Below are positions 22,783-63,645 of a DNA stretch of 64,000 nt, piece by piece (the first letter of the stretch is position 1; each line of letters begins with the position of its first letter). A model generated the notes under the pieces. That model was not told the origin of the DNA and did no database searches. It was given only the letters and a program-made list of their open reading frames with translations. The DNA comes from Candidatus Sericytochromatia bacterium (GTDB lineage Bacteria > Cyanobacteriota > Sericytochromatia > S15B-MN24 > JAQBPE01). Where the stretch lies: positions 9,197 through 73,196 of the forward strand of contig JAYKIL010000021.1 of assembly GCA_035284745.1 (NCBI GenBank), in the 5' to 3' direction. The position numbers and the translations under genes were made by a program.

Positions 22783-24699
22783 TCACGGGCCTAACTCGAC
22801 GGGCCCCGGACCTTTCAGTAGAAAATCATGGGCCGGGTCCACGCGCAGTCGAACCGGTCGATGCGGGCTCAGCAGCTTAAATTCCACCTCGCCCACGGAC
22901 AAATCCAAGTGATAGATGCGGGATTGTCCCTGCGTATTCAGAATTAACGGGAGGCGAATACTGAAGGGTTCCCCCTGCTGTATCAACCGACCCGTCACGG
23001 CAAATCCATCGCCGGCCTCCATGATCTGAACGTCCGCCAGGCTCACTTCCGGGCGACCCGTACGCCCTAACCATTGCGCGATAAACGCACTCAAATTCTT
23101 CTGGGACTCTGCCTCGCAGGCCGCCACGAAACTTACCCACGAGCGTTCGGGACGAGCAGCCCAATTTCGCAATGCGCGGGCAAAAACATCACCCCCTAAG
23201 CGATTACGAAGCATATGAAAAACCATCACCCCTTTGTCCTGAAGAAGAACCCGGCGCAGGTCAGAGGACATCTCTGCGTCCACTTTACTCAAGGGGATGT
23301 CCCCCGATGTTCCGACAATGGCATCGAAGCGGCGAATCGATTCCCACAGGCGATCGCGAAAAGCCATCGAGCCCTCGGTTTGCGCCAACAATTGGGCAGC
23401 CAAATAGCCCGACAACCCCTCACGCAACAACAACTGTTCTCCCTCGGTTCCAGAGAGGGTCAGTTGCTCTAGCAAGGTAGCAGCCATTGCAGAGGGCACA
23501 AATGTTCGGCGCATGATGTCGGAGGCCAACGTTTCGGACGAGAGAAGCAAAAGATTTCCCTGAACCTGCGAAACCAGTGCGCCGCATTCGCCAATCAGCC
23601 AATGACGGGGTGTTGGTAAACTCAATCGATCCGCTAAATATCCGGACGCGGACTGAACCTCCGCAGCGGCGGCTGCCAAGGCACCAGCATTCACACTCTG
23701 TGCATAACCTGTCACCGGGGTGACGCCCGTCCTCTGTTCCCGGTGAGGCCAGTCACTCATCCACAAAGAAAGATTCGAAAGCGGTGATTCACTGCGATGG
23801 CGGTAAAGCCAGCCATCAGGGAAACGCTCCACGTCCGGTGGGTCCCCCGGCATCAAGGAGACCCACCCCGCAGGCACCATCACGGCCGCTTTGGTTGCAA
23901 AAGAGCGGGCAGGAACAGGCTGGCGGGGCCACCACGCGGAGGTAGGAGGCAAAACAGTTACTAATCCAGGCTTTCGAACCGCTCCGGCAGTCGGAATCTC
24001 CCCTTCCCAGACCAGCCTGATGGCTGCATCCAATTCCCGAACCGGAGCCCCCACGTACACCAAGTCGCCAATTTGCCGAAACGGCAATGTTTCTCGCCCC
24101 CACGTCGCCCGTGTCACCTTGAGTTCCGGAGCCAACTCAAAAAAAATTCGTCGGTCGGGGCCACTGGCCTTTAAGCGCATCAACGATTCTGCCCGTAGGT
24201 ATCCCGGGCTCCGGAGGTCCACGTTCAATTCTTGAGAACTGACCACCGCATCGGGGCGCCCCAACGGAATGCTGTCACTGAAAACCCAAACCCCGGCGCG
24301 TCTCAAGGCCTGAATGGGAAATGAACGCGTCAAATGCCGACTGTCGGAGGTTTGAACAGCAATCTCTAGAATCCCGGCCATCCCATCACTTCTGGCGTAG
24401 AAGGTCTCGTATCTGACCTCCCACGAGCGCGGACTCCAGGCTCCCGAGCGCATTTCGTGCCAACGTTCATTCAGCCAGGTGAGCATCGGGCCACCCTGCG
24501 GAACAACCCAACGAACCCTCTTAAATTCGCCTGAGGCCAGCGCATCGCGCAACGCAATGGCCAGTTTCTCGGAGTCCGGCATGGGTGCGGCGAGCTGGGG
24601 CAATGAAATTTGAGCGAAACCCGGTGCGTCAAAACTCAAACCTAGACATAGCAAAAAGACAAGACCCGCGCCCGCCTGGCGCGACACCGCCCTCATCAT
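22783..24699 (-). CDS. Hypothetical secreted protein. C-terminal region faintly M1-aminopeptidase-like but no HEXXH seen
   Basis: Signal peptide GLVFLLCLGLSF. Segment VFHMLRNRLGGDVFARALRNWAA resembles the post-catalytic helix of M1 peptidases, but no zinc motif was found. Confidence 0.45.
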   Translation of the reverse strand: MMRAVSRQAGAGLVFLLCLGLSFDAPGFAQISLPQLAAPMPDSEKLAIALRDALASGEFKRVRWVVPQGGPMLTWLNERWHEMRSGAWSPRSWEVRYETFYARSDGMAGILEIAVQTSDSRHLTRSFPIQALRRAGVWVFSDSIPLGRPDAVVSSQELNVDLRSPGYLRAESLMRLKASGPDRRIFFELAPELKVTRATWGRETLPFRQIGDLVYVGAPVRELDAAIRLVWEGEIPTAGAVRKPGLVTVLPPTSAWWPRQPVPARSFATKAAVMVPAGWVSLMPGDPPDVERFPDGWLYRHRSESPLSNLSLWMSDWPHREQRTGVTPVTGYAQSVNAGALAAAAAEVQSASGYLADRLSLPTPRHWLIGECGALVSQVQGNLLLLSSETLASDIMRRTFVPSAMAATLLEQLTLSGTEGEQLLLREGLSGYLAAQLLAQTEGSMAFRDRLWESIRRFDAIVGTSGDIPLSKVDAEMSSDLRRVLLQDKGVMVFHMLRNRLGGDVFARALRNWAARPERSWVSFVAACEAESQKNLSAFIAQWLGRTGRPEVSLADVQIMEAGDGFAVTGRLIQQGEPFSIRLPLILNTQGQSRIYHLDLSVGEVEFKLLSPHRPVRLRVDPAHDFLLKGPGPVELGP

Positions 24700-30007: not shown

Positions 30008-30502
30008 TTAAACCAGGCTGGGCGAGCACATGGCAAGAATTTCGTTATCGTGGGCATCGGCGTGGTTCACCAACGTCAAAATGGCCGCCCGGAACTCCGT
30101 GTAATCGAGATCATCGGTCGGCAAGTCAACCATCGCAAAGATTTCGCCTCCGTCCATCACGCAAAATTTTGTCAGCGGGATCAAAGCATTCAAGCGCAAA
30201 AGTCTTTCATAGACCTGCGGTTTCACGGCTGTCGGAATCTCCCGACACACCATGGTCCGGAAAGAAAGCCAACCCGGTTCGTCGATGGAAACAAACACCT
30301 CATGAACCTGCAAGTCGCCCGGGAATGCGGTTCGCCAAAGGGTTTCATCACAACGTTCAAAAGGCCAATCCAAGTCGATAAAGTACTGGTCCAGTTTTTG
30401 AGCAAGTGTCACAGAACGCTCTCCTCTATTTTTTTCGCGCTGCCTCGGGGCAGAACCACGCGGTTCAGTGTACCAAGGATTCGACGGGGCACACAACGCC
30501 AT
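30008..30502 (-). CDS. YbjN-domain protein (T3SS-chaperone-like fold, 'putative sensory transduction regulator' family)
   Basis: LDWPFERCDETLWRTAF...VSIDEPGWLSFRTMV...IFAMVDLPTDDLD is a YbjN-like pattern. ATG at 30502 lies 2 nt after the stop of the upstream Cys-rich gene. Confidence 0.55.
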   Translation of the reverse strand: MALCAPSNPWYTEPRGSAPRQREKNRGERSVTLAQKLDQYFIDLDWPFERCDETLWRTAFPGDLQVHEVFVSIDEPGWLSFRTMVCREIPTAVKPQVYERLLRLNALIPLTKFCVMDGGEIFAMVDLPTDDLDYTEFRAAILTLVNHADAHDNEILAMCSPSLV

Positions 30503-30504
30503 TC

Positions 30505-31746
30505 CTAACCGTTTCCCGATCCCAGGGCGGTGTGGCCCGCAATACGCCACTGTTCACGCCCCGTTGAATTGACGACCATCACACCGCAGCCTGTGCACAC
30601 ATTTTGTCCGCAACACGCGCAATTCACGCGGTGTTCGCGACACACGGGGTGTCCGTTCACACATTGCAACAAACACTCGCCACAGAAGGCCTGGCCGCAG
30701 ACAAAGCACGCGGCCAGTTCTCGCTCACACAACACATCGTGGCAAGCAACGCACTGTGCGCTGCAGTTGCCACAGATCAGGTGCAAATGTCGACAGGCGG
30801 TCCACTCTGACGCTTCCTTGTCACAACGCTGACAGCGGGCCCCTTCCACTTCGCCCGTTGCAAGGCTTTGCCAGGCCTGCAATTCCCGAGTCCGCGCGCG
30901 CACCGAGAGCCGCCAGCGCCACAGGCGGCCAGGCACCCGCAACGTCGCATAGCCCAATGGCCTTACGGTAATTCGCAAGTGGTGGCGTCGTGCCTCTTCG
31001 CCAAGACGTTTTGCAAGTTCGTCTTGCAAGCGCCTCTGCTCTTGCGAGGCAAGATTCAGGGCGTCCTCATAGGACTGCCCCCGGCGAACCCGAACGGGCA
31101 CCTCCTCGATCAATTCACGAAAGTAAGCTTCCAAGCGCGTCACCGTTTGCCCAAGGCGCCCGTGCGCCAGACGTTCAAAAGAGGGGACACAACGCTCGGC
31201 CTCAAGCCTGGCAAAATATTCCGCCTCAGCCAAGCGTTGCCCCGGAGGGATGGGCGGGGCGACCGTATCTTGAAACAGCAGGGTCTTTGTCTCCAAAGCG
31301 TCCCAGGCATCTGGTGCGTTTCGCCCTTCCTCATCCAGAGCCACCCGAAACAAACGCTCCACCCGTTCATCGGAGTCAAAAACCAAAGAGAAGTCATACA
31401 GCCAGAAAAACCGGTCTGACTCTTCAGGGGTCAATTCGACAAGCGCCCCATCCTTGGCTGACCAAGCGGGTGCCGGCCATTCACGCCCAGCAAGCGCAAA
31501 TTGAGCACAGCGCCCGCGCCCCGATAAATAGGCAACCATTCCCTCAAACACCCGACTGCCCGGAGCCACAAGATCCTCACCAGCGCTGGCATCTTGCCCA
31601 AAAACCAAAATCAACTCGGCACGACCAAAATGATCGGCGAGCGTGGAGGGTAACGTGACACACGCGCGTCCCGGTGCCGACGAATGCCAATCAGCACCGA
31701 AAAACGTGAAAAACTCGCGGGCAAATGCTTCGCAATCTGGGCTCAA
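30505..31746 (-). CDS. Hypothetical protein with a C-terminal dense Cys/His cluster (about 19 Cys in the last ~90 aa; multiple CxxC), likely a multi-zinc-ribbon module
   Basis: C-terminus CQRCDKEASEWTACRHLHLICGNCSAQCVACHDVLCERELAACFVCGQAFCGECLLQCVNGHPVCREHRVNCACCGQNVCTGCGV. Start ATG overlaps the SNF2 gene stop (ATGA). Confidence 0.5.
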   Translation of the reverse strand: MSPDCEAFAREFFTFFGADWHSSAPGRACVTLPSTLADHFGRAELILVFGQDASAGEDLVAPGSRVFEGMVAYLSGRGRCAQFALAGREWPAPAWSAKDGALVELTPEESDRFFWLYDFSLVFDSDERVERLFRVALDEEGRNAPDAWDALETKTLLFQDTVAPPIPPGQRLAEAEYFARLEAERCVPSFERLAHGRLGQTVTRLEAYFRELIEEVPVRVRRGQSYEDALNLASQEQRRLQDELAKRLGEEARRHHLRITVRPLGYATLRVPGRLWRWRLSVRARTRELQAWQSLATGEVEGARCQRCDKEASEWTACRHLHLICGNCSAQCVACHDVLCERELAACFVCGQAFCGECLLQCVNGHPVCREHRVNCACCGQNVCTGCGVMVVNSTGREQWRIAGHTALGSGNG

Positions 31747-44377: not shown

Positions 44378-47359
44378 ATGCCTCTCGTAATTCCTCGACT
44401 TTTTCTCTCGATGCTCGCCGTGATGGCTGTGCAGGAGGTTCCGCGAAACCTGCCCGCCATCGCCTCCGAGATGACATCGCCAGACCCAGAGACGGAAGTT
44501 CACATCGTCTACACAGGCGGTACGAGGGGAGCCTCATTCGCCCGTGTGGACTTTTCGGAACTCGCACCCGCCTTTCGCGACATTGAAAATCCGGACATCA
44601 AACCCGGTGATATCACGAGTGACAACGTTTTTCGCTCAGGCTCTTGGTTCATCTATACGGACCAAGGCCCGCTGACGCTGGAAGACTTTTCCGATTTTTT
44701 CCAACAGGGTCCACTCCAGACGACTGGGCCAGAGCCCATTTCCATCTTGAGCACTGACTATGCGCACGTCATCGAAATGAAAACGCCTACAAACCAATCA
44801 AACTGGGCACTTGACTGGCTGGGCGAGAGTTTAGCCAAGCTTGGTGGGTACGAAGATGCCCGCAGGTTAAACGGATGGCACTACCGGTTGAGCAATGGGG
44901 CCGGCACCCAGTTATATATGATCGATCTGCGGTCCTCGGAAGGTCCGGAATTCCCGCGTGGAACACCACACCCCGATTTGAAACGTCCCGACCAATGGGA
45001 AATGATCCCCAGCGCCGCACTCAAAGTGCAGAGTCTGACCGCCCCAGCGGAGACGCGCCAATTGCTAGTTGTTGGGCGTCCTCTCGGAGACGGCCTGCGT
45101 CGCTTGGCCCTGCAAAAACAATTGCGCGAGCAACACCCCAAACAAACACTAAACCTCGACTTGGGTAATGCACTTGAAATGGGTGTCTCAGAATCAGTGC
45201 GAGAAAGAAGGGCATTCAGCTTAAAACAAATCGCCGATCTGCACCTTGACGCCCTGATTCCGGGAGAGGCCGAGCTCTCTTTGCCCAGAGCCGACTTCGA
45301 GCGGCTCGCCGAATCGACCCCCATCCTCGCGATGAATCTAGTCCCCCTCAATCGCTGGCGAAATCGCCCCGCGGGGTTACTCTTAAAGCGAATCAACGGC
45401 ATCCAGGTGGCTGTTATTGGGATCGTAGACGACCGCCACTTCGCTCTATCGGGCCTCGGAGGATCTCAAGACCTGTGGCACATTGAAGACCCCACTGAAA
45501 CGACCCGGAAGGCAATTCGCGACCTTGCGGCACTGCCCGATGAACAGAAACCTGCGTATGTCGTTCTGGCGACGAACGTCAGCGACGAGCGACTCCAAAC
45601 GCTGAGGCACTTGAACGGAATCACCGTCGTCCTGGCCGATTTATTCGGCACTCCGGGGGAAATCCTCGCAGAGACAGCCAGTGTCAGCGGAACATCAAGA
45701 GCACGCTCCCGCGCAAGTTTGATGCTGGCTCGTTCGAGTCCTGCCCGCGTCGGCCGTCTGAGTGCTCGCTACACGATCCTCCCAGAGGCTTCTCCCCGCC
45801 TGAACCGTTTAGAAAACGAGGCGCGCCTCGTCACCGACGAACTGTTCTGTGATCCATCGGCCCGCGATACGTTAAATCGGATCAAGGCCCGCCATCAAAA
45901 AATTGGCCGGGAACTCCTTCTGCCCGACATCCGTGAACTCCATCTGAGCCGCCCCGGCCCCCAAGCCGATTCGCCACCCCGAGACGTTCATTTCATTGAT
46001 GGCGCGTTGTGGCAACAATTCCTGACCCACGTACTGTGGAAAACAACCCACTCCGAAGCAGTCTTCCTTCGCCCCATTTCTCCTGCAACACGCGCGATTG
46101 GAGCCATAAAACGCTCCACAATAGAGGGTTGGTTGGAAGTCGGCGACCGCCTCGTCGACCTCACCGTCAGTGGAAAAACCCTCAAACAGCTCGCGGCCCT
46201 AGAGCAACCCCAACTTTCTTGGGCTGGATTCGACCCAAAGACTGGTGCTGTTCTTGGCACGGGCGTCAACGATGATGAAATCTACCGGGTCACCACCACA
46301 GATACGACGACCCACCTACCCTCGGTTCAGGCAGTGTTATCCGGCGCCATGATGCGGGATCGTTGGCAGGGAGAAGCCGCCACCGCCATGCGTCCGTCCG
46401 CAAGTGGCAAAACCGTTCCCCTGCGGGAACACCTGGTGAATTGTCTCTTGGCACTCAAGGGAAACCATCACGGCACCTTTTCCAAGGCATATGTTGAAAG
46501 CCTCCGTCCTTGGTTCCAACCCAGCGTGTGGGATACGCCTGCCCGGTGGTCTCTGCGATTAGAAGATGGAGAGTTATCCTCTCAATCGCTGCAAAGTGGA
46601 ACCGATCCAGCCTTTTCGCAGGTTAGAAACACTCGTGTCACCGCCCCTTCCAGCCAAACGCTGGGAGGCCGTGGTCGGCTGGCTATCCTTTTTGAGTCTC
46701 CTTACTGGGCGCTGGAAAATCAACTTCGGAGCGTTTACCGCCGACAAACCCTCGTCCGAGACGGTCAAAACGTAAGCCAAGAAACCGATGATGAGGTGAG
46801 CGTGCGCAGCGAAATTCGTCTCAAGCGCCTCGGAATTCCGTTTCCTGGTGCCCCTCTGATCCCTTTCGGGAGCTATGCCTACACGACAGAGTTCGTACCA
46901 GACACCTTCGACAGCTTGACGAAACCCCGCCGCTCAGAACTCTCTGCGATCACCGGCTTAATGACGGCTCCCGGAGGAATATTTCGCGAATGGCGTTTTG
47001 GAACAGCGTTGCGAAACGATCTCGCGAACCCGGGATTGCTTGAACCCGGTCTTTATCTCTCTGGGGGTTTTGAGCGCAATCTGGCACCCGTCTCACAAGC
47101 AAAAATCCGCACGGGGCTAGAAATCTACCAGTACCTCCCGACAGAGTTCGACACCCCGGACAGGCTGGGGCTGCTTGGTACCCTGACCAGCGGTCTCTCG
47201 ATTCCTCTGTGGGAACGTTTCACGTTGAATGTAAGCGCAGATTGGTTCGTATTCAGCGGGAAAGTTCCGGCCACTCAGCAATTCAGGTCCAGCCTCGAAT
47301 TTCGCGCAGGCTTAGGGTATTCTCTGGCGTGGAAACCCCTCCACGGCGTATGGTTCTAG
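44378..47359 (+). CDS. Large (993 aa) secreted hypothetical protein. N-region resembles a degenerate 5'-nucleotidase/metallophosphoesterase, and the C-terminus ends in an OMP-like aromatic residue
   Basis: Signal peptide MPLVIPRLFLSMLAVMAVQE. 'GNALEMG' sits where 5'-nucleotidases have GNHEFD, and '...ILAMNLV' where they have P.L.ANV. Terminal ...LHGVWF. Confidence 0.5.
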   Translation: MPLVIPRLFLSMLAVMAVQEVPRNLPAIASEMTSPDPETEVHIVYTGGTRGASFARVDFSELAPAFRDIENPDIKPGDITSDNVFRSGSWFIYTDQGPLTLEDFSDFFQQGPLQTTGPEPISILSTDYAHVIEMKTPTNQSNWALDWLGESLAKLGGYEDARRLNGWHYRLSNGAGTQLYMIDLRSSEGPEFPRGTPHPDLKRPDQWEMIPSAALKVQSLTAPAETRQLLVVGRPLGDGLRRLALQKQLREQHPKQTLNLDLGNALEMGVSESVRERRAFSLKQIADLHLDALIPGEAELSLPRADFERLAESTPILAMNLVPLNRWRNRPAGLLLKRINGIQVAVIGIVDDRHFALSGLGGSQDLWHIEDPTETTRKAIRDLAALPDEQKPAYVVLATNVSDERLQTLRHLNGITVVLADLFGTPGEILAETASVSGTSRARSRASLMLARSSPARVGRLSARYTILPEASPRLNRLENEARLVTDELFCDPSARDTLNRIKARHQKIGRELLLPDIRELHLSRPGPQADSPPRDVHFIDGALWQQFLTHVLWKTTHSEAVFLRPISPATRAIGAIKRSTIEGWLEVGDRLVDLTVSGKTLKQLAALEQPQLSWAGFDPKTGAVLGTGVNDDEIYRVTTTDTTTHLPSVQAVLSGAMMRDRWQGEAATAMRPSASGKTVPLREHLVNCLLALKGNHHGTFSKAYVESLRPWFQPSVWDTPARWSLRLEDGELSSQSLQSGTDPAFSQVRNTRVTAPSSQTLGGRGRLAILFESPYWALENQLRSVYRRQTLVRDGQNVSQETDDEVSVRSEIRLKRLGIPFPGAPLIPFGSYAYTTEFVPDTFDSLTKPRRSELSAITGLMTAPGGIFREWRFGTALRNDLANPGLLEPGLYLSGGFERNLAPVSQAKIRTGLEIYQYLPTEFDTPDRLGLLGTLTSGLSIPLWERFTLNVSADWFVFSGKVPATQQFRSSLEFRAGLGYSLAWKPLHGVWF

Positions 47360-53189: not shown

Positions 53190-54554
53190 CTAATTTTGAC
53201 CCGCAAAATTACGCGAAGTGATGCTTTGAAACTTGGTGAGATTCTTCTCGAAATAAAGCTCCACGTGTCCCACGGGGCCATTACGGTGTTTCGCAATGAT
53301 GACCTCGGCAGTCGACTTTTTGTCGGTGTCGGGGTTGTAATACTCGTCCCGATAAATAAACATCACAATGTCCGCATCCTGTTCGATGCTGCCACTTTCT
53401 CGCAGGTCAGAGAGCATCGGGCGCTTGTTCGGGCGACTCTCGACCGCACGACTCAGTTGTGACAAAGCAATCACCGGCACACGAAGCTCCCGTGCCAGTT
53501 GTTTCAGACCCCGCGATATCGCCCCCATCGCTGCGGCACGATTGTCATCCTTGGTGGATTTGATGCCCGATGACATCAGTTGAAGGTAGTCCACCATAAT
53601 GAGGCCCAATTCTCCAGTTTCGGCCATCACACGACGCGCCTTAGAGCGCAGTTCCGCCACCGTCAAGGCAGCCGTGTCGTCGATGTAAATGGGCGTTTCA
53701 GACAACAATCCGATCGCCTGGACCAACTTTCCCCAGTCCTGTTCAGCCAGGTACCCTGTGCGCAACCGATGCGAATCGATGCCCGCTTCAGCACACAAAA
53801 GCCGTTGCACCAATTGCTCCTTCGACATTTCGAGAGAATAAACCAAGACGGCCTTGCGGGTCTCCACAGCCACGTTTCGACAGAAGTTGAGCGCCAAGCT
53901 GGTCTTTCCCATCGCGGGGCGTGCGGCCAAAATCAGCAAATCACTGCTTTGAAAGCCATTGAGCATATTGTCGAGGTCGTAAAAACCGGTGGTATTTCCC
54001 AACAGGCGATCCTTGTCGGCATACCGTGCTTCGATGGTTTCGAAGGTCTCATTGATCACGTCCTTAATGGGAGTCATCGCGCCCGATTGCCTGCGCTGTC
54101 CCACCTCCAAAACCGTTCTTTCCGCCGTATCGAGAATCGCTTCGACGTCTTCTTCCTCAGCAAATGCAGCGGCCACAATCTCCGTGCCAACGCGTATCAA
54201 ATTACGCAAAACCGCTTTATCAGCAACAATCTTGGCGTAATATTCCGCGTGCGCGGTGGTTGGGATCGAGGCCAATAAATCGGCGAGATACCCGATTCCT
54301 CCCACCTCTTCGAGCCGAGGACCCAACTCTCCCTGCAAGGTAATCAGGTCGACAGGCTCGCCGCGTTCATACAGGGTTCTCATCGCGTCGAAAATCACCC
54401 CGTGCGATGCCCGATAAAATCCGGGACCCTCGAGCGTCTGACTCACGCGTGCGATCGCCTCGCGATCCATCATCATCGCGGCAAGTACGGCCTGCTCTGC
54501 CTCCATATTTTGAGGAGGGATGCGTTCAATAACTTCTTTCATGCCACCCGCCAA
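53190..54554 (-). CDS. dnaB: Replicative DNA helicase DnaB
   Basis: N-terminal PPQNMEAEQAVLAAMM, Walker A ILAARPAMGKTSLALNF, RecA-like C-domain; 454 aa. Confidence 0.95.
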   Translation of the reverse strand: MAGGMKEVIERIPPQNMEAEQAVLAAMMMDREAIARVSQTLEGPGFYRASHGVIFDAMRTLYERGEPVDLITLQGELGPRLEEVGGIGYLADLLASIPTTAHAEYYAKIVADKAVLRNLIRVGTEIVAAAFAEEEDVEAILDTAERTVLEVGQRRQSGAMTPIKDVINETFETIEARYADKDRLLGNTTGFYDLDNMLNGFQSSDLLILAARPAMGKTSLALNFCRNVAVETRKAVLVYSLEMSKEQLVQRLLCAEAGIDSHRLRTGYLAEQDWGKLVQAIGLLSETPIYIDDTAALTVAELRSKARRVMAETGELGLIMVDYLQLMSSGIKSTKDDNRAAAMGAISRGLKQLARELRVPVIALSQLSRAVESRPNKRPMLSDLRESGSIEQDADIVMFIYRDEYYNPDTDKKSTAEVIIAKHRNGPVGHVELYFEKNLTKFQSITSRNFAGQN

Positions 54555-55427: not shown

Positions 55428-56057
55428 TTAAAACGAGAAACTCAAGCCGCCATCTGGCTGGACCATGCGAATTTCCAGCCGTTTATCGGTAAAGAAGAAC
55501 ATCTCGGCCGTCCAGAAATTGCTGGTGCTGGCCTGACCGCGAATTCGATACACCTCGGCGGCCCGTTTTTCCCCTTGTTCCCCCTGAAATCTTCCGTCGT
55601 TGTTCACATCGTCCCACGCCAACATCACGTAGGTCCCTTCCGCGGTATCGGGTCCGGGCGTAATTTGCAAAGAGAATCGGTTGTCACGGGGCGTCACGGT
55701 CTGATCGAATTCCACAGTCTTGGGCTCCGTGAGATTAAAGTCCAATTGACCGCGCGGTGCCCCCTCATTGGGTAGCTCGGTCCAAGCCAGATATCCAACC
55801 TTAATCGCGGCAGGAGGATTCGACACAGTGCCCGCGGTCGCCAAGGGGCGTAAAAACCGCTGTGCCATCACTCCCATGGCGATGGCCCCTGCATTACACG
55901 CAGTAAGAGGCAGCAACAAAGCGAAGGCAATGGTCGGCTTTACGAATTTCAAAGCGAGGACCCTCTCCAGGTCATAAAAAAACGCGCCCCGCTTCACCCT
56001 ACCATAACTGCCGCGCAGTGTGTGTGACGGTTGCCAGCAAAAGCCCGTCGGATTCAT
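55428..56057 (-). CDS. Hypothetical lipoprotein
   Basis: Signal + lipobox LLLPLTACNAG. No catalytic motifs. Confidence 0.4.
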   Translation of the reverse strand: MNPTGFCWQPSHTLRGSYGRVKRGAFFYDLERVLALKFVKPTIAFALLLPLTACNAGAIAMGVMAQRFLRPLATAGTVSNPPAAIKVGYLAWTELPNEGAPRGQLDFNLTEPKTVEFDQTVTPRDNRFSLQITPGPDTAEGTYVMLAWDDVNNDGRFQGEQGEKRAAEVYRIRGQASTSNFWTAEMFFFTDKRLEIRMVQPDGGLSFSF

Positions 56058-56089: not shown

Positions 56090-57661
56090 TTAGAAATTAC
56101 TGATGGGTTGTCCACCCGGGATCACCGTTCCCCCGGGGCCGTAGGTCACGGTGTTCTGGCTCATCCCTGTCCCTCCAAACCCCCCTCCTGTGCTGTTGTT
56201 TACACCCCGCCAGTCAAACGTACGGTGCATGATGATCCCATTCTCGCCCACCACAAAACCTTCCCCCTGTGGCAAGAGGTCAATCGCGTAAAAGGCGCCG
56301 TTCACATTCCCGGAGAAGAAACTCGTATCGGGCTTCAGAATCCCATTGAAATTCGCCAGCAAATTACCGAACACGGACTGAGGATTTCTCTCTAGGGTCC
56401 AATCACGCTGACGAACCTGCCCCAGCGCCCAGCCCTCTGTTCCTGAAATCATCTCGATGTCGTAGAGCGGAACTTGGTCCAGTCCGTCGACGGACGCATC
56501 ATACTGGCCCGGCACCCAGCCGTCGCGTTGGGGATCAAATTGCAAGAAAATGCCACGTGGACGAATCAGCAGGTTGTCACGAACTCCGACCGCATAGCCC
56601 TGGGTTTCACTGATCATTTTGATGGCAGTGAGTTCTTGGGAGTCAGTCAAGGAAATGGTGCCCCGATTGTCCCACACATTCTTTTTCTCCCAACTCCCAT
56701 TTTGGAACTTGAGAATCAAAGGCGTCCGGGCCAAGCCAGCGGACTTGCCGACAGCCCAACCACTGCGGGCAGAGGTCATGTGGATGTCATTTAACCTGCC
56801 CTTGGCGGGAGACTGAGCCTGCTTCCACGAAGCCCCATCCCAGTGAAGGATCAGCGCATTCCCGTCGGTTTCTTCGCCCACGGCCCACGCATCGCGTTCG
56901 TTGACGACGTGAATCGCGTGCAACGCACCCGACTTCGCAGGCAGATTGACGGGGGTCCACATGCTCCCATTCCAGCGAGAAACGAACGGAACGCTGCCAC
57001 CGGCCCGTGATCCTACCGCCCAGCCGATCGTATTGTTCGCAAACGCCAAACCACGAACCGAGGCATCCCCCTGGCGAAAAGTCGGTTCTGGCCTCCACGC
57101 GCCGTTGAGGTAATGTAAGAGGGTCCCGCTGTCACCGCCCGCCCACGCTTCAAAGCGGCTCACCATTTTGACCGTCCGCAGGTTCACACCCGTGGGCGAA
57201 AGCACCTGCTGCCAAGCGTAACGGGCCGGTTCCACCTGCACCGTGGCCTCCGCAGTAAGGTCCCCCAAGCGCGCGACGACCTTCATCGTCCCAGGAGCGA
57301 TGGGCATCAAAACACCCTGGCGATCAATTTGCGCCAATTCCACGTTTGAGACGTTCCAAGTGACCAGACGCGGGTCGTTGTAGACCTTCGAATCGGACCC
57401 TTGAATCGCGACAGCAAAGCGCAGGCTTTGGCCGACACGGGCTCCTGTCTGGCCGGGATTCAATTGTAGGCCCCGGGCCGTGACGCCAGCGGGCAAGGCA
57501 GGGACGACTTCTTGTCGTACCAGGCGGGGTGTACTGACGTACTCGCTGGTGTAGGGCTGCATCGCCAGCGGCTGATAAAACGGTGAGACTCCGCATCCAG
57601 TCAGCATCCAGACGGTAGAAACAGTCACTGAGGCGGAGAAAAAACGCTTTGACGTCATCAT
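56090..57661 (-). CDS. Lipoprotein with Big_2-like Ig domain followed by a YCF48/BNR-like beta-propeller
   Basis: Lipobox MLTGCGVS; Ig-like segment ending TAEATVQVEPA; six or more propeller-blade repeats with GWAVG/AWAVGE/GYAVGV/GWALGQ motifs. Confidence 0.5.
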   Translation of the reverse strand: MMTSKRFFSASVTVSTVWMLTGCGVSPFYQPLAMQPYTSEYVSTPRLVRQEVVPALPAGVTARGLQLNPGQTGARVGQSLRFAVAIQGSDSKVYNDPRLVTWNVSNVELAQIDRQGVLMPIAPGTMKVVARLGDLTAEATVQVEPARYAWQQVLSPTGVNLRTVKMVSRFEAWAGGDSGTLLHYLNGAWRPEPTFRQGDASVRGLAFANNTIGWAVGSRAGGSVPFVSRWNGSMWTPVNLPAKSGALHAIHVVNERDAWAVGEETDGNALILHWDGASWKQAQSPAKGRLNDIHMTSARSGWAVGKSAGLARTPLILKFQNGSWEKKNVWDNRGTISLTDSQELTAIKMISETQGYAVGVRDNLLIRPRGIFLQFDPQRDGWVPGQYDASVDGLDQVPLYDIEMISGTEGWALGQVRQRDWTLERNPQSVFGNLLANFNGILKPDTSFFSGNVNGAFYAIDLLPQGEGFVVGENGIIMHRTFDWRGVNNSTGGGFGGTGMSQNTVTYGPGGTVIPGGQPISNF

Positions 57662-58015
57662 TCATTCCTCGGGAAACCCGTTAAAAAGCTGTGCATAGCA
57701 CCCCGCTATTATCCGCCATTCCACCTTCAAACTGACGTTAAGCTTACAGAAAAATATCTTTATGCCGCCGCCCCAAGGGGAGTGATGCACATCACAACAG
57801 CGAGGTCATTATGGCACGGCGAAGTTCCATAAAATGTTTGTATCAGATGCATACCCGGAGACATGGTAGGGTATACTGTTAATATTCTCGAACACGTGCA
57901 AACGTGCTCTCAAAAATGACGGGCCGAGCAACGCTGAACTATAGACAGCGCCTGTGTCGGGTGCCTAGAGGATGGAACCTCAAAGGGTCGTCAGTGCATT
58001 CTGGTCAGCCAGGCC

Positions 58016-59590
58016 GTGAATGCGAAGGAAATGCCGAAAGGAAGGATTCCTATGGATCTGGCCAGCTCTACTTCGGTCAATCGGATCAATCTTGAAAAAC
58101 TTGAGAGCCGCGGCAACAGTTCTTTGCTGCGGGAGGCGGCGATGTCGCAGCCGCCTCAGAACGTTGCAGCAACGGCGCCGCCTGCGAACTCGAGTGTCCA
58201 AAAGACACCGCTCATTGCGCCTGCCAACGAGTCGTCCAACTCGGGATTTGCGCGCGATTTGGCGCAGACGCTGAGCGATTTGCGTGAGCGATTGGGAGAG
58301 TCAAGTCTGGCATCTGGCCTTCAATTCAGCGCTGCGAGTGCCTCCCAATTGAGTAGCACGGCTCTCAGACAAGTGGAGCTGTCCGACCAAGGTGCGCCCA
58401 ATGAGAGCGACGCGACTTTCTCGCCCTCCGCGCCGGCATCAGTGAACGACCTAGCATCGCAAAGCTTCGACTTCGCAGATGCATTGGACTTCACCGATGA
58501 CAGTTCCTTCGTTCCGCGGGAACCCGTGACGGTCCAAAACAATGCGGCTCCCAGCGCCTCAAATTCGCAACCCGAGGAAAACGAGCAGCAAGAGCCAAAC
58601 CTCGGCGATGCAACGCTCAGCACTCTGTCGACTTCTTTGAACTTACAAAGCGCGGCGGGTCGATTCCAAATTGACGTGAACGGCCAGACGCTCAACTTCC
58701 GCGCTGATCAGACCCTCAATGATGTGTTAACTGGGCTGTCAGCCCCTGGAACCGGTGTCAGGGCATCGTTGGACCCAAGGGAACGGCGCATTGACATCGA
58801 AAGCACGAACGGTCGGCCGCTTTCAATCAACGATCGCGAAGGCAATCTTTCAAGCGGCCTAGGGATCGAAGTCACACCCTCTGAGAATACAAATGCCTCT
58901 TTGAGCCGCGACCTGCAAGACTTTGCACAAGGGCTTAACCGCGCGATCACGACCCTGGAACGGGCCGATTCAACGCCCCAATCGAGAGAGGCGGAGCAGG
59001 TTTTGAATGAACTAAAATCCGCGCTGAACGGTTTGTTTGCCCCCTCGCGAAACGGCCAGGTCAATGGCCTGGGGGACCTTGGTTTTTCCCGCGAAAACGG
59101 CGAAGTGCAGTTTGACGAAAGCCGTCTCAATTCGCTGGTACAGAGCAATCCAGACGAAGTCAATCGTGTGGCAGGTTCTTTGGCGGAAAATGCTGCTCCC
59201 ATCCTGCGCTCGGGCGAACGGGTCGCCCGCGAGATAGAAACGTCCGTGGCCGAGGCAAAGGCCAGCACGCAAGAGGTAAAGATATTTGGCGAAATTCAGC
59301 GCCTGCAAGTGCGTCAGCAGACCTTAGAATTGGACCGGGTCAGTATTGACAGGCTTCGTAACCGGGTGTCTGAGCAGGGTGAATTTCTTGCTCGCGTGGC
59401 GGAGAATTTAGAAGACCGCCTCTCCGGTACCGTGCCGAAAGTCGTCCAAGAGACCAAAGATTTCGCCCGAGACGTGGCGGCATCTCGGCCTCGACGTCAA
59501 TCGGCCATCGCTTTTCGTCCCCCTGATCCGCCACTGGGTAACGTGGGGGCTCCGAATTCCTCCTTCGTGCTCGCGCGGGATCGGGCCTAG
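58016..59590 (+). CDS. Ser/Ala/Asn-rich protein with FliD (flagellar cap / Flagellin_IN)-like central and C-terminal regions. No flagellar genes nearby
   Basis: RFQIDVNGQTLNFRADQTLNDVLTGLSAPGTGVRASLDPRERRIDIESTNG resembles the Flagellin_IN/FliD repeat (INGvtI.v...tL.dlv.aIN...gvtAs). C-terminus FDESRLNSLVQSNPDEVNRVAGSL resembles FliD_C (LD..KL..AL..NPD.V..LF). Confidence 0.35.
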   Translation: MNAKEMPKGRIPMDLASSTSVNRINLEKLESRGNSSLLREAAMSQPPQNVAATAPPANSSVQKTPLIAPANESSNSGFARDLAQTLSDLRERLGESSLASGLQFSAASASQLSSTALRQVELSDQGAPNESDATFSPSAPASVNDLASQSFDFADALDFTDDSSFVPREPVTVQNNAAPSASNSQPEENEQQEPNLGDATLSTLSTSLNLQSAAGRFQIDVNGQTLNFRADQTLNDVLTGLSAPGTGVRASLDPRERRIDIESTNGRPLSINDREGNLSSGLGIEVTPSENTNASLSRDLQDFAQGLNRAITTLERADSTPQSREAEQVLNELKSALNGLFAPSRNGQVNGLGDLGFSRENGEVQFDESRLNSLVQSNPDEVNRVAGSLAENAAPILRSGERVAREIETSVAEAKASTQEVKIFGEIQRLQVRQQTLELDRVSIDRLRNRVSEQGEFLARVAENLEDRLSGTVPKVVQETKDFARDVAASRPRRQSAIAFRPPDPPLGNVGAPNSSFVLARDRA

Positions 59591-59606: not shown

Positions 59607-59762
59607 ATGGAACCACGCGCGGTAGAATCCCACCCTCCGTCAAAAAAGCCCTATCAGAAACCGAAAATTGAGTCTCACAGGGTCTTTGAAGTGTCGCTCG
59701 CGTGCATCAAAGTGCCCGGCTCGCCGGCTTGCGCATTTAACGTGGCGCGAGCGCGCAGTTGA
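59607..59762 (+). CDS. Candidate 51-aa precursor-like small ORF (MEPRAVESHPPSKKPYQKPKIESHRVFEVSLACIKVPGSPACAFNVARARS)
   Basis: ATG at 59607. Its stop TGA (59760-59762) overlaps the TTG start (59759) of the HprK-like gene. Y-x-x-P-x-I leader-like motif, C-terminal Ser, no acidic residue in the last 23 aa. Confidence 0.3.
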   Translation: MEPRAVESHPPSKKPYQKPKIESHRVFEVSLACIKVPGSPACAFNVARARS

Positions 59763-60604
59763 GTGCCGTGCCCTGGCAGCCAGTGCTCGGCTTGGCCGGC
59801 TTCAACGTCGCCTTAGATCTGCCCTCCCATTGCTGGTGGGAGTCCCTCGTTGACAGACTGGGGCATTTTGCCGTCAACGAAACTCCAGATGCCTTCCTGT
59901 GTGTTCAGATCACGGCGCCAATGCCGGAAACAGACGATCGCGAGCCCCGTGTTTTTCAAGACGCCCGCGGATTGCACCTCAAACACGACCAATACTTTGG
60001 CACCGTTTGCCATCCGGACGAAGCCGTTCTTCAGGTGGCTACAGCCCCCAATACGCTGCCTGATGCGACCTTCCCGATGGCGGTGGATGGCCTCCTGCGC
60101 CTCTTGCTCGCCCAATTGCTGCAACGAACAGGAAGTCTGATGCTGCACGCGGCGGGATTGATCGGGCCACAGCGAAAGGGCTACATTTTTTTTGGGCCAT
60201 CGGGGAGCGGAAAAACAACGATGTGCAAACTTTCAGATCCACAGTTTCCGGTCTTGTGCGACGAGCTCATTGCGATTCGTTTGGATCGAGAAGTACCCAC
60301 TCTGTACAGCACGCCATTCGCTGGCGCGTGGGGAAAAAGTTTTCCGGGGCATTGCGCCCTTGCGGGCTTGTATCGACTGCGCCATGCGCCCCAAACCCAG
60401 GTTGAGGACCTTTCCCCCAGTCGCGCCATCCGTGAAATTTTAGAATCTATGGTTTATTACGATCAGAGCCCAACAGGTTTGTCGCAATCCCTCGAGATTG
60501 CAGCACACTTGGCACAGGCAGTTCCTGTTCGAGAGCTCGCATTCCTTCCGGAGGCCGCCGTATGGCAGACCATCGCTCATCAGAACCAACCCGCCATTGG
60601 GTGA
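59759..60604 (+). CDS. HPr kinase C-terminal-domain-like P-loop serine kinase (RiPP/lasso-associated kinase family)
   Basis: GYIFFGPSGSGKTTMCKL P-loop followed by VLCDELIAI (compare HprK LVADD). ~281 aa, no HprK N-domain. Confidence 0.7.
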   Translation: MSAVPWQPVLGLAGFNVALDLPSHCWWESLVDRLGHFAVNETPDAFLCVQITAPMPETDDREPRVFQDARGLHLKHDQYFGTVCHPDEAVLQVATAPNTLPDATFPMAVDGLLRLLLAQLLQRTGSLMLHAAGLIGPQRKGYIFFGPSGSGKTTMCKLSDPQFPVLCDELIAIRLDREVPTLYSTPFAGAWGKSFPGHCALAGLYRLRHAPQTQVEDLSPSRAIREILESMVYYDQSPTGLSQSLEIAAHLAQAVPVRELAFLPEAAVWQTIAHQNQPAIG

Positions 60605-60885
60605 GACTTAACCCGCGAATTGCTGCTCGGACCATCCACGGTGAAACGCTCATCTTGACGCCCCATGACAGCATTCTCCATACGCTCAACGAGGTCGGAA
60701 CAAGAGTTTGGAGCTTATTGGCTCAGGCAGAATCGCCTGAAGCCATCGCGTTCACCCTGAGTCAAGAGTATGAAGTGGAGGTGGAGGAAGCCCGTGAAGA
60801 CGTCTTCTGTTTACTTCGCACCCTCAAAGAAAAGGGCATCATTGAAACTTCGACATCAGAATTGGGAACGCAACAACCCGATTAA
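60601..60885 (+). CDS. PqqD-family protein (RiPP recognition element, RRE)
   Basis: VRLNPRIAARTIHGETLILTPHDSILHTLNEVGTRVWSLL...EAIAFTLSQEYEVEVEEAREDVFCLLRTLKEKGII fits PqqD. GTG 60601 overlaps the kinase stop (GTGA); the track start 60562 is also possible. Confidence 0.7.
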   Translation: MRLNPRIAARTIHGETLILTPHDSILHTLNEVGTRVWSLLAQAESPEAIAFTLSQEYEVEVEEAREDVFCLLRTLKEKGIIETSTSELGTQQPD

Positions 60886-61509
60886 TTTGCCTTGAATCGT
60901 CAACCGATCAACCAGCAAAGGGGCCATGGAGCGGTTGGCAGGCTGAAGGCGAAACCGCCCCCCGCGTTCACGATAAAAGCGCTTTAACGTCGCCTCGCCG
61001 CTGTCGAGCAATGCCACCACGATATCTCCGTTGCGCGCCGTCTCGGAGCGCTTAATGATGACATAGTCGCCGTCTTGAATATGGTCTTCGATCATCGAAT
61101 CGCCCTTGACCTGCAAGACGTACACATCGGTGCCAGCAAACTGGGTTTCGAGATCAAGAAACTCGTCCGACTGAGCAATCGCCTCGATCGGACGGCCCGC
61201 CGCAATTCGGCCAACAATCGGTAAGCCCCGAGACGACGTCTGAAAGGTGGCCTTGGGCGCCGCAGAACCGAGCAACCGGATGGCCCGATTCTTGCCATCC
61301 GCCCACTCGATCAAGCCCCGTTTGGCGAGTACCGTCAAGTGATAATGAACCGTAGACGTTGAACGCAAACCGAGGGCTTCGCATATTTCGCGGATAGACG
61401 GCGCATAGCCATTCGCGTGGACGTGGTCGACAATGAACCGATACACGTCATTTTGACGCGTCGCCCGCGTCGTGGCGGCGGAAACAGTGCTTTGCTCGTC
61501 AGGCTGCAT
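60856..61509 (-). CDS. lexA: LexA repressor (SOS regulon)
   Basis: wHTH N-domain (IREICEALGLRSTSTVHYHLTVLAKRGLIEW) and S24 peptidase (VKGDSMIED...LKRF). Start at the internal Met. The 3' end overlaps the convergent PqqD-like gene by ~30 nt. Confidence 0.85.
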   Translation of the reverse strand: MQPDEQSTVSAATTRATRQNDVYRFIVDHVHANGYAPSIREICEALGLRSTSTVHYHLTVLAKRGLIEWADGKNRAIRLLGSAAPKATFQTSSRGLPIVGRIAAGRPIEAIAQSDEFLDLETQFAGTDVYVLQVKGDSMIEDHIQDGDYVIIKRSETARNGDIVVALLDSGEATLKRFYRERGGRFRLQPANRSMAPLLVDRLTIQGKLIGLLRSQF

Positions 61510-61553
61510 CAGGCATCTCCCCAGGCAATTTCGAAAAACCCATGGGCAATTGT

Positions 61554-61567
61554 AGAACAGTTGTTCC
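61554..61567. promoter_or_regulatory. Cheo-type SOS box AGAACAGTTGTTCC (GAAC-N4-GTTC) upstream of lexA, in the divergent region shared with the lipoprotein gene at 61665
   Basis: Palindrome read directly in the sequence, ~45 nt upstream of the lexA start. Confidence 0.55.
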
Positions 61568-61664
61568 AAAAAAGACAAGTATGGAACCCCATGCGCAGCC
61601 CGCGTGCGACCACACAAACTGGGTAAATAAAAAGTAATTCCGATGAGAAAGGATTCACCCCTTA

Positions 61665-62237
61665 ATGCGCAAGGTTCTTGGCGTGGTGTTGATGGGATTG
61701 ATGCAGGCGGGTTGCGGCTGGTACACGAACATTCCGGCCTCTATTCTTGTGGTCTCGGTCAAACCAGGAAAAATCACCTACGAACCCCCCAATACGGCAG
61801 GGGTTCGCGAGATAAAGACGGAAAACCCCGTCGTCCGGCTTCAGGGCGAGCCAGGCAGCATTGGCGCGAATTTTTCAATTGCCACCGTGCAGTATACACG
61901 GAGCAACGGAACGGACATCGCTGCGGATAAACTTCCGCCCATGAGGATCGGTCTCAGTTTTAGGGTTGAATCATCGACCTATCCTGCACAACCCGGAACG
62001 GGCCCCATCGACCAGTCACAAGTGGGGCGCATTATTGACGCAGGCCGCACCGAGATAGAATTGCCCGTTCTCACTCGACTGGTTGAACAATACGGCCAAG
62101 ACAACAATCCGCCAGAGGGCAATGCACCCCTGATCACTGCCAATGTTATTTTTCAGGGGGCTGACGACGCCAACTTCCCGATCAGCCTGTCTGCCTTTGT
62201 TCCTATCTACTTTAGCGGCAATCCGGGATCACGATGA
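61665..62237 (+). CDS. Hypothetical lipoprotein
   Basis: Signal/lipobox LMGLMQAGCGW. Confidence 0.4.
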   Translation: MRKVLGVVLMGLMQAGCGWYTNIPASILVVSVKPGKITYEPPNTAGVREIKTENPVVRLQGEPGSIGANFSIATVQYTRSNGTDIAADKLPPMRIGLSFRVESSTYPAQPGTGPIDQSQVGRIIDAGRTEIELPVLTRLVEQYGQDNNPPEGNAPLITANVIFQGADDANFPISLSAFVPIYFSGNPGSR

Positions 62238-62243
62238 GAATCG

Positions 62244-62423
62244 CACTGCGGCGGATGATTCAGGAAGAGTCAGGCTCTGCCGCGGTAGAGTACGCCTTGC
62301 TGACCGGTGCTTTTGTCCTCTGTCTTTTTGGAGCCGCGGCCGCCCTAAAAAATGCGCAAGCAGCCGCTTTTCGCGCTCAACACGAAGGTCTCAAGCGCTG
62401 GCGAGCCCCTTGAATCGCGCTCC
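62244..62423 (+). CDS. Divergent Flp/Fap-family pilin (59 aa), absent from the ORF track
   Basis: MRIALRRMIQEESGSAAVEYALLTGAFVLCLFGAAAAL... carries the Flp motif G-x-x-x-VEYAL plus a hydrophobic helix. Confidence 0.55.
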
Positions 62424-62565: not shown

Positions 62566-62757
62566 ATGCTGATGCTTAAGAAACTGTGGAATGATGAAGA
62601 CGGTCAATCTCTGGTGGAATATGGCCTGATCTTGGGTTTGGTCTCCGTGGCCTTGATTGCCGTCCTTGGAACGATGCGCACCGAACTCGGAAAGATTTTT
62701 GATGCCGTCGCCAAGTCGCTGAAAACGGCTGCATCCTCCGTCAAGTCCGCCAAGTAA
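62566..62757 (+). CDS. flp: Flp family type IVb pilin
   Basis: MLMLKKLWNDEDGQSLVEYGLILGLVSVALIAVLGTM... canonical Flp prepilin. Strong RBS AAAAGGAG. Confidence 0.75.
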   Translation: MLMLKKLWNDEDGQSLVEYGLILGLVSVALIAVLGTMRTELGKIFDAVAKSLKTAASSVKSAK

Positions 62758-62781: not shown

Positions 62782-62964
62782 ATGTGGCACCGATTGTGGC
62801 ACGATGAAGACGGTCAAAGTCTGGTCGAATACGGCCTCATTTTGGGCTTGGTCTCAGTTGCGCTCATTGCGGTGCTGGGAACGATGAGAGCAAACCTGGT
62901 GAACATTTTCATGGAGGTATCTTCCCAGTTGCGCAAGGGTTCAGCCGCGGTCAAAACAAATTAG
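62782..62964 (+). CDS. flp: Flp family type IVb pilin (paralog)
   Basis: MWHRLWHDEDGQSLVEYGLILGLVSVALIAVLGTM... The first 40 aa are nearly identical to the previous pilin. Confidence 0.75.
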   Translation: MWHRLWHDEDGQSLVEYGLILGLVSVALIAVLGTMRANLVNIFMEVSSQLRKGSAAVKTN

Positions 62965-63102
62965 CGAATCACTTGTGGAAAAGGACCAGCCGGCGGCTGG
63001 TCCTTTCTTGTCTGTATGTCCCACGGTTTGGGTGTACGCACGGGCGGGAAGATAATGGTCAGCGCCTTTTCATTTCTCTCCCCTCATCCCCCGAAAGAGA
63101 CA

Positions 63103-63645
63103 ATGGCACCTGCCTGGCAGTTCGGACTGGTCGGAATCCTTATCGTTGCTTTGGTGACCGACCTTCAGAGCCGTAAAATCTACAACTGGCTTACCTTTCC
63201 AGCCATCCTTCTCGGGCTGGCTTTGGGGGCATTGACAGGAGGAGTGGCGGGCCTCCAGGCAGCCGGCATTGGCCTTTTGGTTGGCAGCGCGGTCTTTCTC
63301 CTCGGATTCATGCTCGGAGCCATGGGCGCGGGCGATGTAAAACTGATGGCGGCGGTCGGTGCGTGGCTGGGATGGCCCCACGCCTTGGCCGCTGTCCTCT
63401 ATGTCACGGTCATTGGGGGTTTCGTTTCCCTGGGGGCCGCCGCTGTGAATGGCTCCTTGATACAGCTATTTCGTAACATTTACTGGTTCCTCGTCGGACT
63501 CATCCTGCCGGGCGGCAAAGCCCAGGCGGCCATAGCCCGCAGTGCGGCGCCCCCGATTCCATACGGCATCTCGATTGCACTCGGCGGCATCCTGGCGTTG
63601 TTTTTTCCAGAACCCCAAACCCTGCTCGCCTTGATGAGGAGGTGA
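63103..63645 (+). CDS. cpaA: Prepilin peptidase, A24 family (CpaA/TadV)
   Basis: Polytopic; catalytic Asp regions VTDLQSRKIYNW and GAGDVKLMAAVGAWLG. Confidence 0.75.
   Translation: MAPAWQFGLVGILIVALVTDLQSRKIYNWLTFPAILLGLALGALTGGVAGLQAAGIGLLVGSAVFLLGFMLGAMGAGDVKLMAAVGAWLGWPHALAAVLYVTVIGGFVSLGAAAVNGSLIQLFRNIYWFLVGLILPGGKAQAAIARSAAPPIPYGISIALGGILALFFPEPQTLLALMRR

Follow-up and report, generated by a model that had tools for sequence, protein, structure and literature searches.

We analyzed a gene for a FliD-like protein in a 64,000-nucleotide stretch of contig JAYKIL010000021.1, from a Candidatus Sericytochromatia bacterium; we refer to this whole stretch as the window. FliD is regarded as a dedicated flagellar part, and an initial annotation had described the gene product as a divergent filament-cap homolog outside a flagellar context, either repurposed for another appendage or an orphan. 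We lean toward a related interpretation, which we hold to be somewhat better than an even bet: the protein is a diverged member of the FliD (HAP2) superfamily, and its gene is the first of a plus-strand four-gene unit that stands head-to-head with two lipoprotein genes. The gene belongs to neither a flagellar nor a Tad locus. Related loci and proteins are designated below with the prefixes L and P.

The longest version of the open reading frame (ORF) begins at a GTG codon and spans 58016..59590 on the plus strand, encoding 524 amino acids, as the initial annotation had stated. A GGAAGGA Shine-Dalgarno sequence is located 7 nucleotides (nt) upstream of an ATG at 58052, and homologs start at the same position, including P0001 (512 amino acids, 99% identical). 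Because the Shine-Dalgarno spacing and the homolog starts agree, we consider ATG 58052 rather than GTG 58016 the likely true start. The composition is rich in Ser (12.4%), Ala (11.1%) and Asn (7.3%), as had been noted, with seven Lys and no Cys, Trp, His or Tyr. Two segments that the annotation had likened to flagellar motifs, FQIDVNGQTLNFRADQTLNDVLTGLSAPGTGVRASL and FDESRLNSLVQSNPDEVNRVAG, both lie inside this reading frame. The annotated 16-nt gap to a small ORF on the same strand is also correct, the next ATG being at 59607. The gene and the parts of its product, several of them defined from the comparisons and the structural model described below, are as follows.

58052..59590, plus strand: FliD-like coding sequence, 512 amino acids from ATG 58052, assigned from the ORF, ribosome-binding site, homolog starts and homology to FliD.
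58052..58591, plus strand: N-terminal ~180 residues, low-complexity, Ser/Ala/Pro-rich and predicted to be disordered save for a short conserved motif and one helix.
58235-58300, plus strand: confidently predicted N-terminal helix, residues 62-83, predicted local distance difference test (pLDDT) 75-91.
58646..58846, plus strand: Flagellin_IN-type small beta/alpha domain, the sole predicted "head" domain, residues ~199-265, aligned by hhalign to the Flagellin_IN region of FliD, pLDDT 84-93.
58883..59431, plus strand: predicted FliD_C-type helical region, residues ~278-460, with two helices, a beta-hairpin (345-354), a DxxRLxxLxxxxPDxV motif and a C-terminal helix of ~90 residues.
59432..59587, plus strand: Pro-rich tail, predicted to be disordered (pLDDT <50), ending in NSSFVLARDRA, a degenerate form of the family motif PPGLLSFGL(S).

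One check proposed for the initial annotation was a Pfam search for FliD_N, FliD_C and Flagellin_IN, which gave weak evidence. FliD_C (PF07195) matched the window protein with an E-value of 3e-4 and 20.7 bits, under the 25.4 gathering cut-off, over profile positions 96-203 of 236, and neither FliD_N (PF02465) nor Flagellin_IN (PF07196) was matched directly. The NCBIfam FliD model PRK12765 gave an E-value of 1.4e-4, far under its cut-off. A sequence-profile search of the PDB with the family alignment returned no matches, even at E ≤ 10, and we therefore used fold comparison alongside the profile alignments.

When a 19-sequence family alignment was compared with three true FliDs using hhalign, the two aligned with a probability of 98.8% and an E-value of 1.4e-16 over 188 columns, with residues 199-385 of the family protein matched to FliD 269-536. 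These columns take in the FliD_C region with its "FDESRLNSLVQSNPDEVNRV" motif as well as the Flagellin_IN-type domain, so that the aligned stretch holds a beta domain and a beta-hairpin besides helices. Both segments quoted in the initial annotation fall within it; Pfam gives no direct Flagellin_IN match for the window protein itself. A hidden Markov model (HMM) built from the three true FliDs scored 46.5 bits on the FliD-like ORF, its sole match in the window, through the Flagellin_IN-type and FliD_C-type regions alike, and across the related loci it matched only the orthologous FliD-like ORFs, in some loci. Among the relatives, P0011, P0012, P0014 and P0017 exceed the FliD_C gathering cut-off (26-29 bits), P0012 and P0015 exceed the Pfam cut-off for Flagellin_IN, and the FliD_C matches always cover profile positions 85-235 only. 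FliD_N was matched neither in the window protein nor in any of 11 divergent relatives scanned, and hhalign of the N-terminal 110 residues against FliD showed no similarity to this domain (probability 0.5%).

For the fold comparison, a first AlphaFold model based on nine sequences (pLDDT 57) was too poor to use and was replaced by one based on the 19-sequence alignment. In the second model, the core (residues 181-460) has a pLDDT of 80-93, and its head domain of beta/alpha type is followed by two helices, a beta-hairpin and a helix of ~90 residues; values are under 50 for residues 1-61 and 98-179. In a Foldseek search of this core against the PDB, the top five matches were all FliD, namely 6SIH (Campylobacter), two chains of 9GNZ (the Salmonella cap-filament complex), 5H5V (E. 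coli) and 9U4R, followed by a more than 30-fold gap in E-value. With high confidence, we regard the protein as a remote homolog of the head and C-terminal parts of FliD that has no recognizable FliD_N. The alignments and the model suggest that it has retained one Flagellin_IN-type head domain and a FliD_C-type D1/D0 helical region with a beta-hairpin. The apparent departures from FliD would be the lack of a recognizable FliD_N, a long disordered N-terminus and a Pro-rich tail with a family-specific motif. The proposal of a divergent filament-cap homolog is therefore upheld by hhalign, Foldseek and the relatives above the FliD_C cut-off.

To define the family, we searched 1.84 billion cluster representatives with a HMMER profile of the nine closest sequences and matched 28 proteins. 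About 20 of these are family members, 305-783 amino acids long. The remaining matches cover the small beta domain only and include bona fide FliDs, which have FliD_N and FliD_C and mostly Flagellin_IN, and one FlgK; it was through the Flagellin_IN-type segment that these true FliD and FlgK proteins were reached. Every organism-labeled member comes from "Candidatus Sericytochromatia bacterium" or "Cyanobacteria bacterium RYN_339", that is, from Sericytochromatia-type metagenome-assembled genomes (MAGs). A profile search of genome contigs with a narrow alignment returned two already-known MAGs only, a result that reveals little on distribution. Members begin with the short motif MQIGxxxxPLRLxFDP or a variant of it, followed by a helix. 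The number of Flagellin_IN-type domains that come next ranges from none, in the short forms (305-335 amino acids), to about four. A helical region and a Pro-rich tail ending in PPGLLSFGL(S) complete the C-terminus. Many residues in the core are invariant, and the N- and C-terminal motifs are kept across 20-30% identity. Cys is absent from all 19 members analyzed, as it is from the three true FliDs examined, and several orthologs among P0004-P0008 (300-564 amino acids; L001, L002, L004) have neither Lys nor Cys. One ortholog, P0004, is named "flagellar filament capping protein FliD" by the NCBI pipeline. This record (368 amino acids) is truncated at its N-terminus, since the ORF (L001 8963-11107) extends upstream to MQVSSTPSTNRINFEPLEPR, and a 289-amino-acid gene call on the opposite strand over that upstream stretch (L001, 9022-9891, minus) is probably spurious.

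The FliD-like gene does not stand alone. It is accompanied by five further genes, two divergent from it and three following it on its own strand.

55428..56057, minus strand: small lipoprotein with an LTAC lipobox, a 209-amino-acid ORF downstream of the propeller gene, no Pfam family.
56090..57661, minus strand: 523-amino-acid lipoprotein with an LTGC lipobox, a Big_2 Ig-like domain and a Ycf48/BNR-like beta-propeller, divergent from the FliD-like gene.
59607..59762, plus strand: 51-amino-acid conserved peptide with a leader-like KKPYxKPx(I/L/V), an SHRVFEVSL-x-C core, two Cys and a C-terminal Ser.
59759..60604, plus strand: ScmC-like P-loop protein, HPr-kinase/PEPCK-like, with FFGPSGSGKTT and LCDE motifs.
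60562..60885, plus strand: PqqD-family peptide-binding chaperone, of the RiPP recognition element (RRE) type, Pfam PqqD 55.3 bits, E 8e-15 (RiPP, a peptide made on the ribosome and modified after translation).

The unit thus consists of the small lipoprotein and the Big_2/propeller lipoprotein on the minus strand, and of the FliD-like protein, a peptide of 48-52 amino acids, the ScmC-like protein and PqqD on the plus strand. All six genes are found in the window and in L001, L002, L004, L006, L007, L012 and L065; in L005, L009 and L063 the unit is partial and intact as far as the contig reaches. Orthologs of the propeller lipoprotein, ~520 amino acids in size, adjoin the FliD-like gene in all loci that extend that far. 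Because orthologs of the small lipoprotein have 172-191 amino acids, the true start of its gene is probably internal to the 209-amino-acid ORF. Identity to the window ranges from 49 to 73% for the propeller lipoprotein, the best-conserved large protein of the unit, and from 60 to 81% for the peptide, which is its most conserved product. What lies outside the unit varies. Upstream are L9/DnaB, a histidine kinase (HisKA), a carboxypeptidase-regulatory-domain protein or a glycosyltransferase (GT1), and downstream are LexA and Tad genes or a Bax-inhibitor and a PLD protein. The DnaB of L065 from "Cyanobacteria bacterium RYN_339" (1-1989, minus strand, 880 amino acids) contains an intein with a LAGLIDADG endonuclease; the DnaB of the window (53190-54554, minus strand, 454 amino acids) has no intein. 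PADLOC gave no defense-system match for any of the six cassette proteins.

The divergent region between the propeller and FliD-like genes holds a conserved non-coding element.

57732..57766: non-coding element of ~35 nt, CTKRCGTTAAGSTTnnrGAAAnnnnnCTTAW, in the divergent propeller/FliD-like intergenic region.
57680-57694: second GTTAA-containing box in the same region.

The element is kept in all ten loci that have the region (the window, L001, L002, L004, L006, L007, L009, L012, L063 and L065), including those whose proteins share as little as 20-50% identity, with a GC-rich hairpin, variable in sequence, usually lying after it. No Rfam family was matched in this 5′ intergenic region, and inspection by eye gave no convincing fit to a sigma-70, sigma-54 or sigma-28 promoter. 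It may be an operator, a promoter or an RNA. Within the plus-strand unit, 16 nt separate the peptide gene from the FliD-like gene in the window, and 13-108 nt separate the called genes in the other loci. The TGA of the peptide gene overlaps the TTG start of the ScmC-like gene, and terminator prediction returned nothing on the plus strand over the four genes. Because of this stop/start overlap, the lack of a predicted terminator and the shared intergenic element, we treat the six genes as one unit whose four plus-strand members probably form an operon with a single transcript.

The initial annotation had suspected a link between the FliD-like gene and a small-ORF/kinase/PqqD module. This suspicion gains strength from the loci themselves, since all that extend far enough have the genes together without exception while their outer flanks change, and the alternative of an orphan gene is misleading for a gene that sits in a conserved six-gene unit. 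From this gene order, we judge it probable that membership of the unit is fixed and that the FliD-like protein has a functional link to the peptide/ScmC/PqqD trio.

The peptide is encoded in every family locus that reaches its position. Its invariant elements are a Y, K-P, SHRVFEVSL, two Cys and the Ser at the C-terminus. In L003 (~5746) and L006 (~4871) it escaped gene calling or was called wrongly; in L012 it lies at ~6390. A tblastn search of metagenomes with the peptide alignment found nothing. The best NCBIfam matches of the window PqqD are lasso-type PqqD chaperones. The ScmC-like protein of the window has only sub-threshold matches, to PEPCK_ATP, ScmC and HprK_rel_A (Pfam, NCBIfam), while its orthologs carry a precomputed PF27840 ScmC assignment. 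Scanning metagenomes with the ScmC alignment yielded 51 loci, of which L012 (396 bits) is the only one to encode the peptide, the FliD-like protein and the two lipoproteins; in the remaining 50, which score at most 139 bits, all of these are missing. The scores are bimodal, with 11 loci, the window included, at 396-447 bits, all with the FliD-like gene and peptide. We conclude that the cassette ScmC is a distinct, well-separated subfamily tied to the six-gene unit. The few low-scoring loci that were sampled have radical-SAM/SPASM and NTP_transf_5 genes in the classical SynChlorMet-type arrangement. At L046, a distant ScmC/PqqD cassette, a peptide with the very similar leader KVYQKPRI is encoded at 3658-3960: KVYQKPRISWEE. 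No asparagine-synthase-like or transglutaminase-like family, as expected of a lasso cyclase or leader protease, was found among the scanned window ORFs or the related loci, and no cassette locus has a radical-SAM/SPASM gene. Our literature search found no paper on ScmC or SynChlorMet cassettes.

Given its homology, we looked for flagellar genes around the FliD-like gene. A Pfam scan of 47 window ORFs, comprising all larger non-overlapping ORFs and a few small ones, found no flagellar family besides the weak FliD_C match of the FliD-like protein itself, in agreement with the annotation's statement that the 64 kb hold no flagellin, hook, motor or fliS genes. Nor is there a flagellar family in the annotated flanks (up to ~10 kb on each side) of L001, L002, L004, L005, L006, L007 and L065. 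We searched the literature for flagella or motility in Sericytochromatia and found no statement on either. The Tad/Flp genes reported downstream are present, with Flp pilin genes beginning ~2.6 kb from the FliD-like gene.

60856-61617, minus strand: LexA, 253 amino acids from the first possible start, in most loci placed after the cassette and before the Tad/Flp genes.
61665-62237, plus strand: 190-amino-acid lipoprotein, no Pfam family, located after LexA and before the pilin genes and kept in most of the related loci.
62234-62413, 62566-62757 and 62782-62964: two ORFs for Flp/Fap-type pilins, of which Pfam confirmed one, and a small ORF.
63016-63645: A24 prepilin peptidase, after the pilin ORFs.

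The real start of LexA is probably internal, because orthologs have 202-221 amino acids. An ortholog of the small ORF at the same position has a weak Flp_Fap match. Downstream of the cassette, Tad/Flp genes occur in the window, L001, L002, L004 and L005; in L006, Bax-inhibitor and PLD genes replace LexA and Tad, and in L065 the pilus genes are rearranged and scattered among peptidase genes. Since the outer flanks differ between loci, the Tad neighborhood lies outside the conserved unit.

Several other products of the window were recorded in the same scan. A YbjN-family protein (30008-30550, minus strand) also matches PF22551, "T3SS (YopN, CesT) and YbjN peptide-binding chaperone", below the cut-off; this is the only nominal type III association in the window and is probably unrelated. 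A histidine kinase of 1662 amino acids (7706-12694, minus strand) has GAF, HisKA and HATPase within its last ~400 residues, the first ~1250 having no Pfam match. Four further ORFs have no Pfam family at E ≤ 1e-3: 16305-18722 (plus, 805 amino acids), 22783-24699 (minus, 638 amino acids), 44378-47359 (plus, 993 amino acids) and 30505-31746 (minus, 413 amino acids).

Several observations weigh against our interpretation of a FliD superfamily member at work in this unit. The window protein is below the cut-offs in Pfam and NCBIfam, lacks direct Flagellin_IN and FliD_N matches and drew nothing from the PDB profile search; the short forms have no head domain, and the L012 protein apparently has no beta-hairpin segment. 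The FliD-like protein has no Sec signal. It is the fastest-evolving member of the six-gene unit (20-44% identity to the window, against 49-73% for the propeller lipoprotein). There is no lasso cyclase, protease, radical-SAM enzyme or transporter near the cassette. Finally, all cassette loci seemingly come from one lineage, and shared ancestry, rather than function, could therefore account for part of the synteny. The sub-cut-off matches and the empty PDB search would suit a FliD likeness that is a compositional artifact of a Ser/Ala/Asn/Gln-rich coiled-coil protein. We rejected this idea as extremely unlikely, however, since the hhalign alignment of 188 columns reaches beyond helices into a beta domain and a beta-hairpin, relatives score above the FliD_C cut-off over one shared set of profile positions (85-235), the top five Foldseek matches are exclusively FliD, and the three-FliD HMM picks only this ORF in the window. 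If the homology is genuine, the protein might be a working flagellar cap, or an alternative cap paralog, with a flagellar type III system from another part of the genome exporting it. The hhalign and Foldseek results, the FliD label of P0004, and a disordered N-terminus and Cys-free composition typical of flagellar axial proteins would all fit, and some Melainabacteria, in the wider cyanobacterial group, are flagellated (PMC6340189). We nevertheless find such a role quite unlikely: FliD_N occurs in no member scanned and the N-terminus cannot be aligned to it, the short forms lack any head domain, flagellar families are missing from the window and the annotated flanks of related loci, the partnership with non-flagellar genes is invariant, and the family is limited to about 20 cluster representatives.

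A different explanation holds that the gene is a relic of a lost flagellar system, or an acquired fragment, kept near the trio by lineage synteny alone and without functional connection to it. Its fast evolution, the loss of FliD_N, the highly variable length (305-783 amino acids) and the probable origin of all loci from one lineage are what such a relic might show. However, the reading frame is intact in every locus, many core residues are invariant and the terminal motifs persist at 20-30% identity. The unit also holds together while both of its outer flanks are replaced, the genes are tightly spaced on a shared strand, and the distinct ScmC subfamily co-occurs in every case; we thus think a relic unlikely. 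The downstream genes raised one more possibility, namely that the protein serves the Tad/Flp pilus as a tip, cap or adhesin. Tad/Flp genes do follow the cassette in five loci, the window among them, but an opposite-strand LexA stands between the two gene sets, L006 has Bax-inhibitor/PLD instead, and the L065 pilus genes are dispersed. Tad pili grow from the base and are not known to carry a distal cap. A tie to the pilus is accordingly not supported, and we rejected a Tad accessory as very unlikely on the synteny of L006 and L065.

Returning to a diverged FliD in a fixed non-flagellar unit, we can outline how such a cassette might operate. PqqD would bind the KKPYxKPx(I/L/V) leader of the peptide, and the ScmC-like kinase would then modify the peptide. 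Phosphorylation of the invariant Ser at the peptide's C-terminus would be the most plausible modification, being what HPr-kinase homologs do to the C-terminal Ser of the precursor in lasso clusters (PMC8498205). The FliD-like protein may oligomerize via its retained helical bundle and act as a structural or docking partner of the peptide or of another cassette partner, much as FliD docks unfolded partners, and the two lipoproteins would be envelope-side components. The specific docking or scaffold role is a guess by analogy, and one we would not expect to prove right. We also speculate, as a long shot, that the cassette is a flagellum-independent "cap plus subunit" descendant or that the FliD-like protein is a protein-sized client of PqqD and ScmC. 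As a cap, the FliD-derived protein could capture, chaperone or cap the kinase-modified peptide at the envelope together with the lipoproteins. As a client, its conserved N-terminal motif and Ser-containing C-terminal motif could mirror the leader and C-terminal Ser of the peptide.

If our interpretation is right, a flagellar axial protein has been re-used outside the flagellum and locked together with a RiPP-style trio and two lipoproteins. Should either the "cap plus subunit" or the client proposal be true, a flagellar axial protein would be serving a purpose not described before, in an RRE-dependent system of a new kind. Sericytochromatia, a group of non-photosynthetic relatives of cyanobacteria, bear on what the ancestral cyanobacterial cell was like and on whether it had flagella, and records that name such proteins "FliD" (e.g. 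P0004) could mislead motility predictions for Sericytochromatia-type MAGs. The cassette also defines a type of ScmC/PqqD system without radical-SAM enzymes in which a highly conserved precursor can be identified, and the chemistry of ScmC is therefore directly testable.

The FliD superfamily is already known, and one ortholog has been auto-annotated as FliD; what appears to be undescribed is an architecture lacking FliD_N, the restriction to a small lineage and the presence of two lipoproteins and a RiPP-style trio as fixed partners. Compared with FliD/HAP2 (6SIH, 5H5V, 9GNZ), the family shares a Flagellin_IN-type head, FliD_C-type helices with a beta-hairpin, a long C-terminal helix, the "D..kL..al..dPd.v" motif, conserved termini that enclose central domains in varying number, and a disordered N-terminus and Cys-free composition. 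In contrast to FliD, it lacks FliD_N, begins with a motif of its own (MQIGxxxxPLRLxFDP or a variant) and has a Pro-rich tail ending in GLLSFGL, and some members are headless. No fliS, fliT, fliC or other flagellar gene is a neighbor; the family is always found in the six-gene non-flagellar unit, and only in a small Sericytochromatia-type lineage.

For the trio, the closest functional analogy seems to be with phosphorylated lasso systems of the paeninodin type (PMC8498205). The apparent likeness lies in a short precursor-like peptide whose leader reads K-K-x-aromatic-x-x-P-x-(I/L) and whose last residue is Ser, in a P-loop protein of HPr-kinase/PEPCK-like type, and in a PqqD RRE whose best matches are lasso chaperones. 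It differs in that no cyclase (C), leader protease (B2) or ABC exporter is found among the scanned window ORFs, in that its peptide is conserved along almost the whole length, and in having the FliD-like and two lipoprotein genes as fixed partners. The SynChlorMet (Scm) cassette, which consists of ScmC, ScmD (PqqD-like) and two radical-SAM/SPASM proteins, offers a second comparison. Both have an ScmC-family protein (PF27840 on the orthologs) directly before a PqqD-family protein, and at the distant cassette L046 a peptide is encoded whose leader is similar; however, the six-gene unit has no radical-SAM/SPASM or NTP_transf_5 gene, and its ScmC proteins score 396-447 bits, compared with at most 139 at other ScmC loci.

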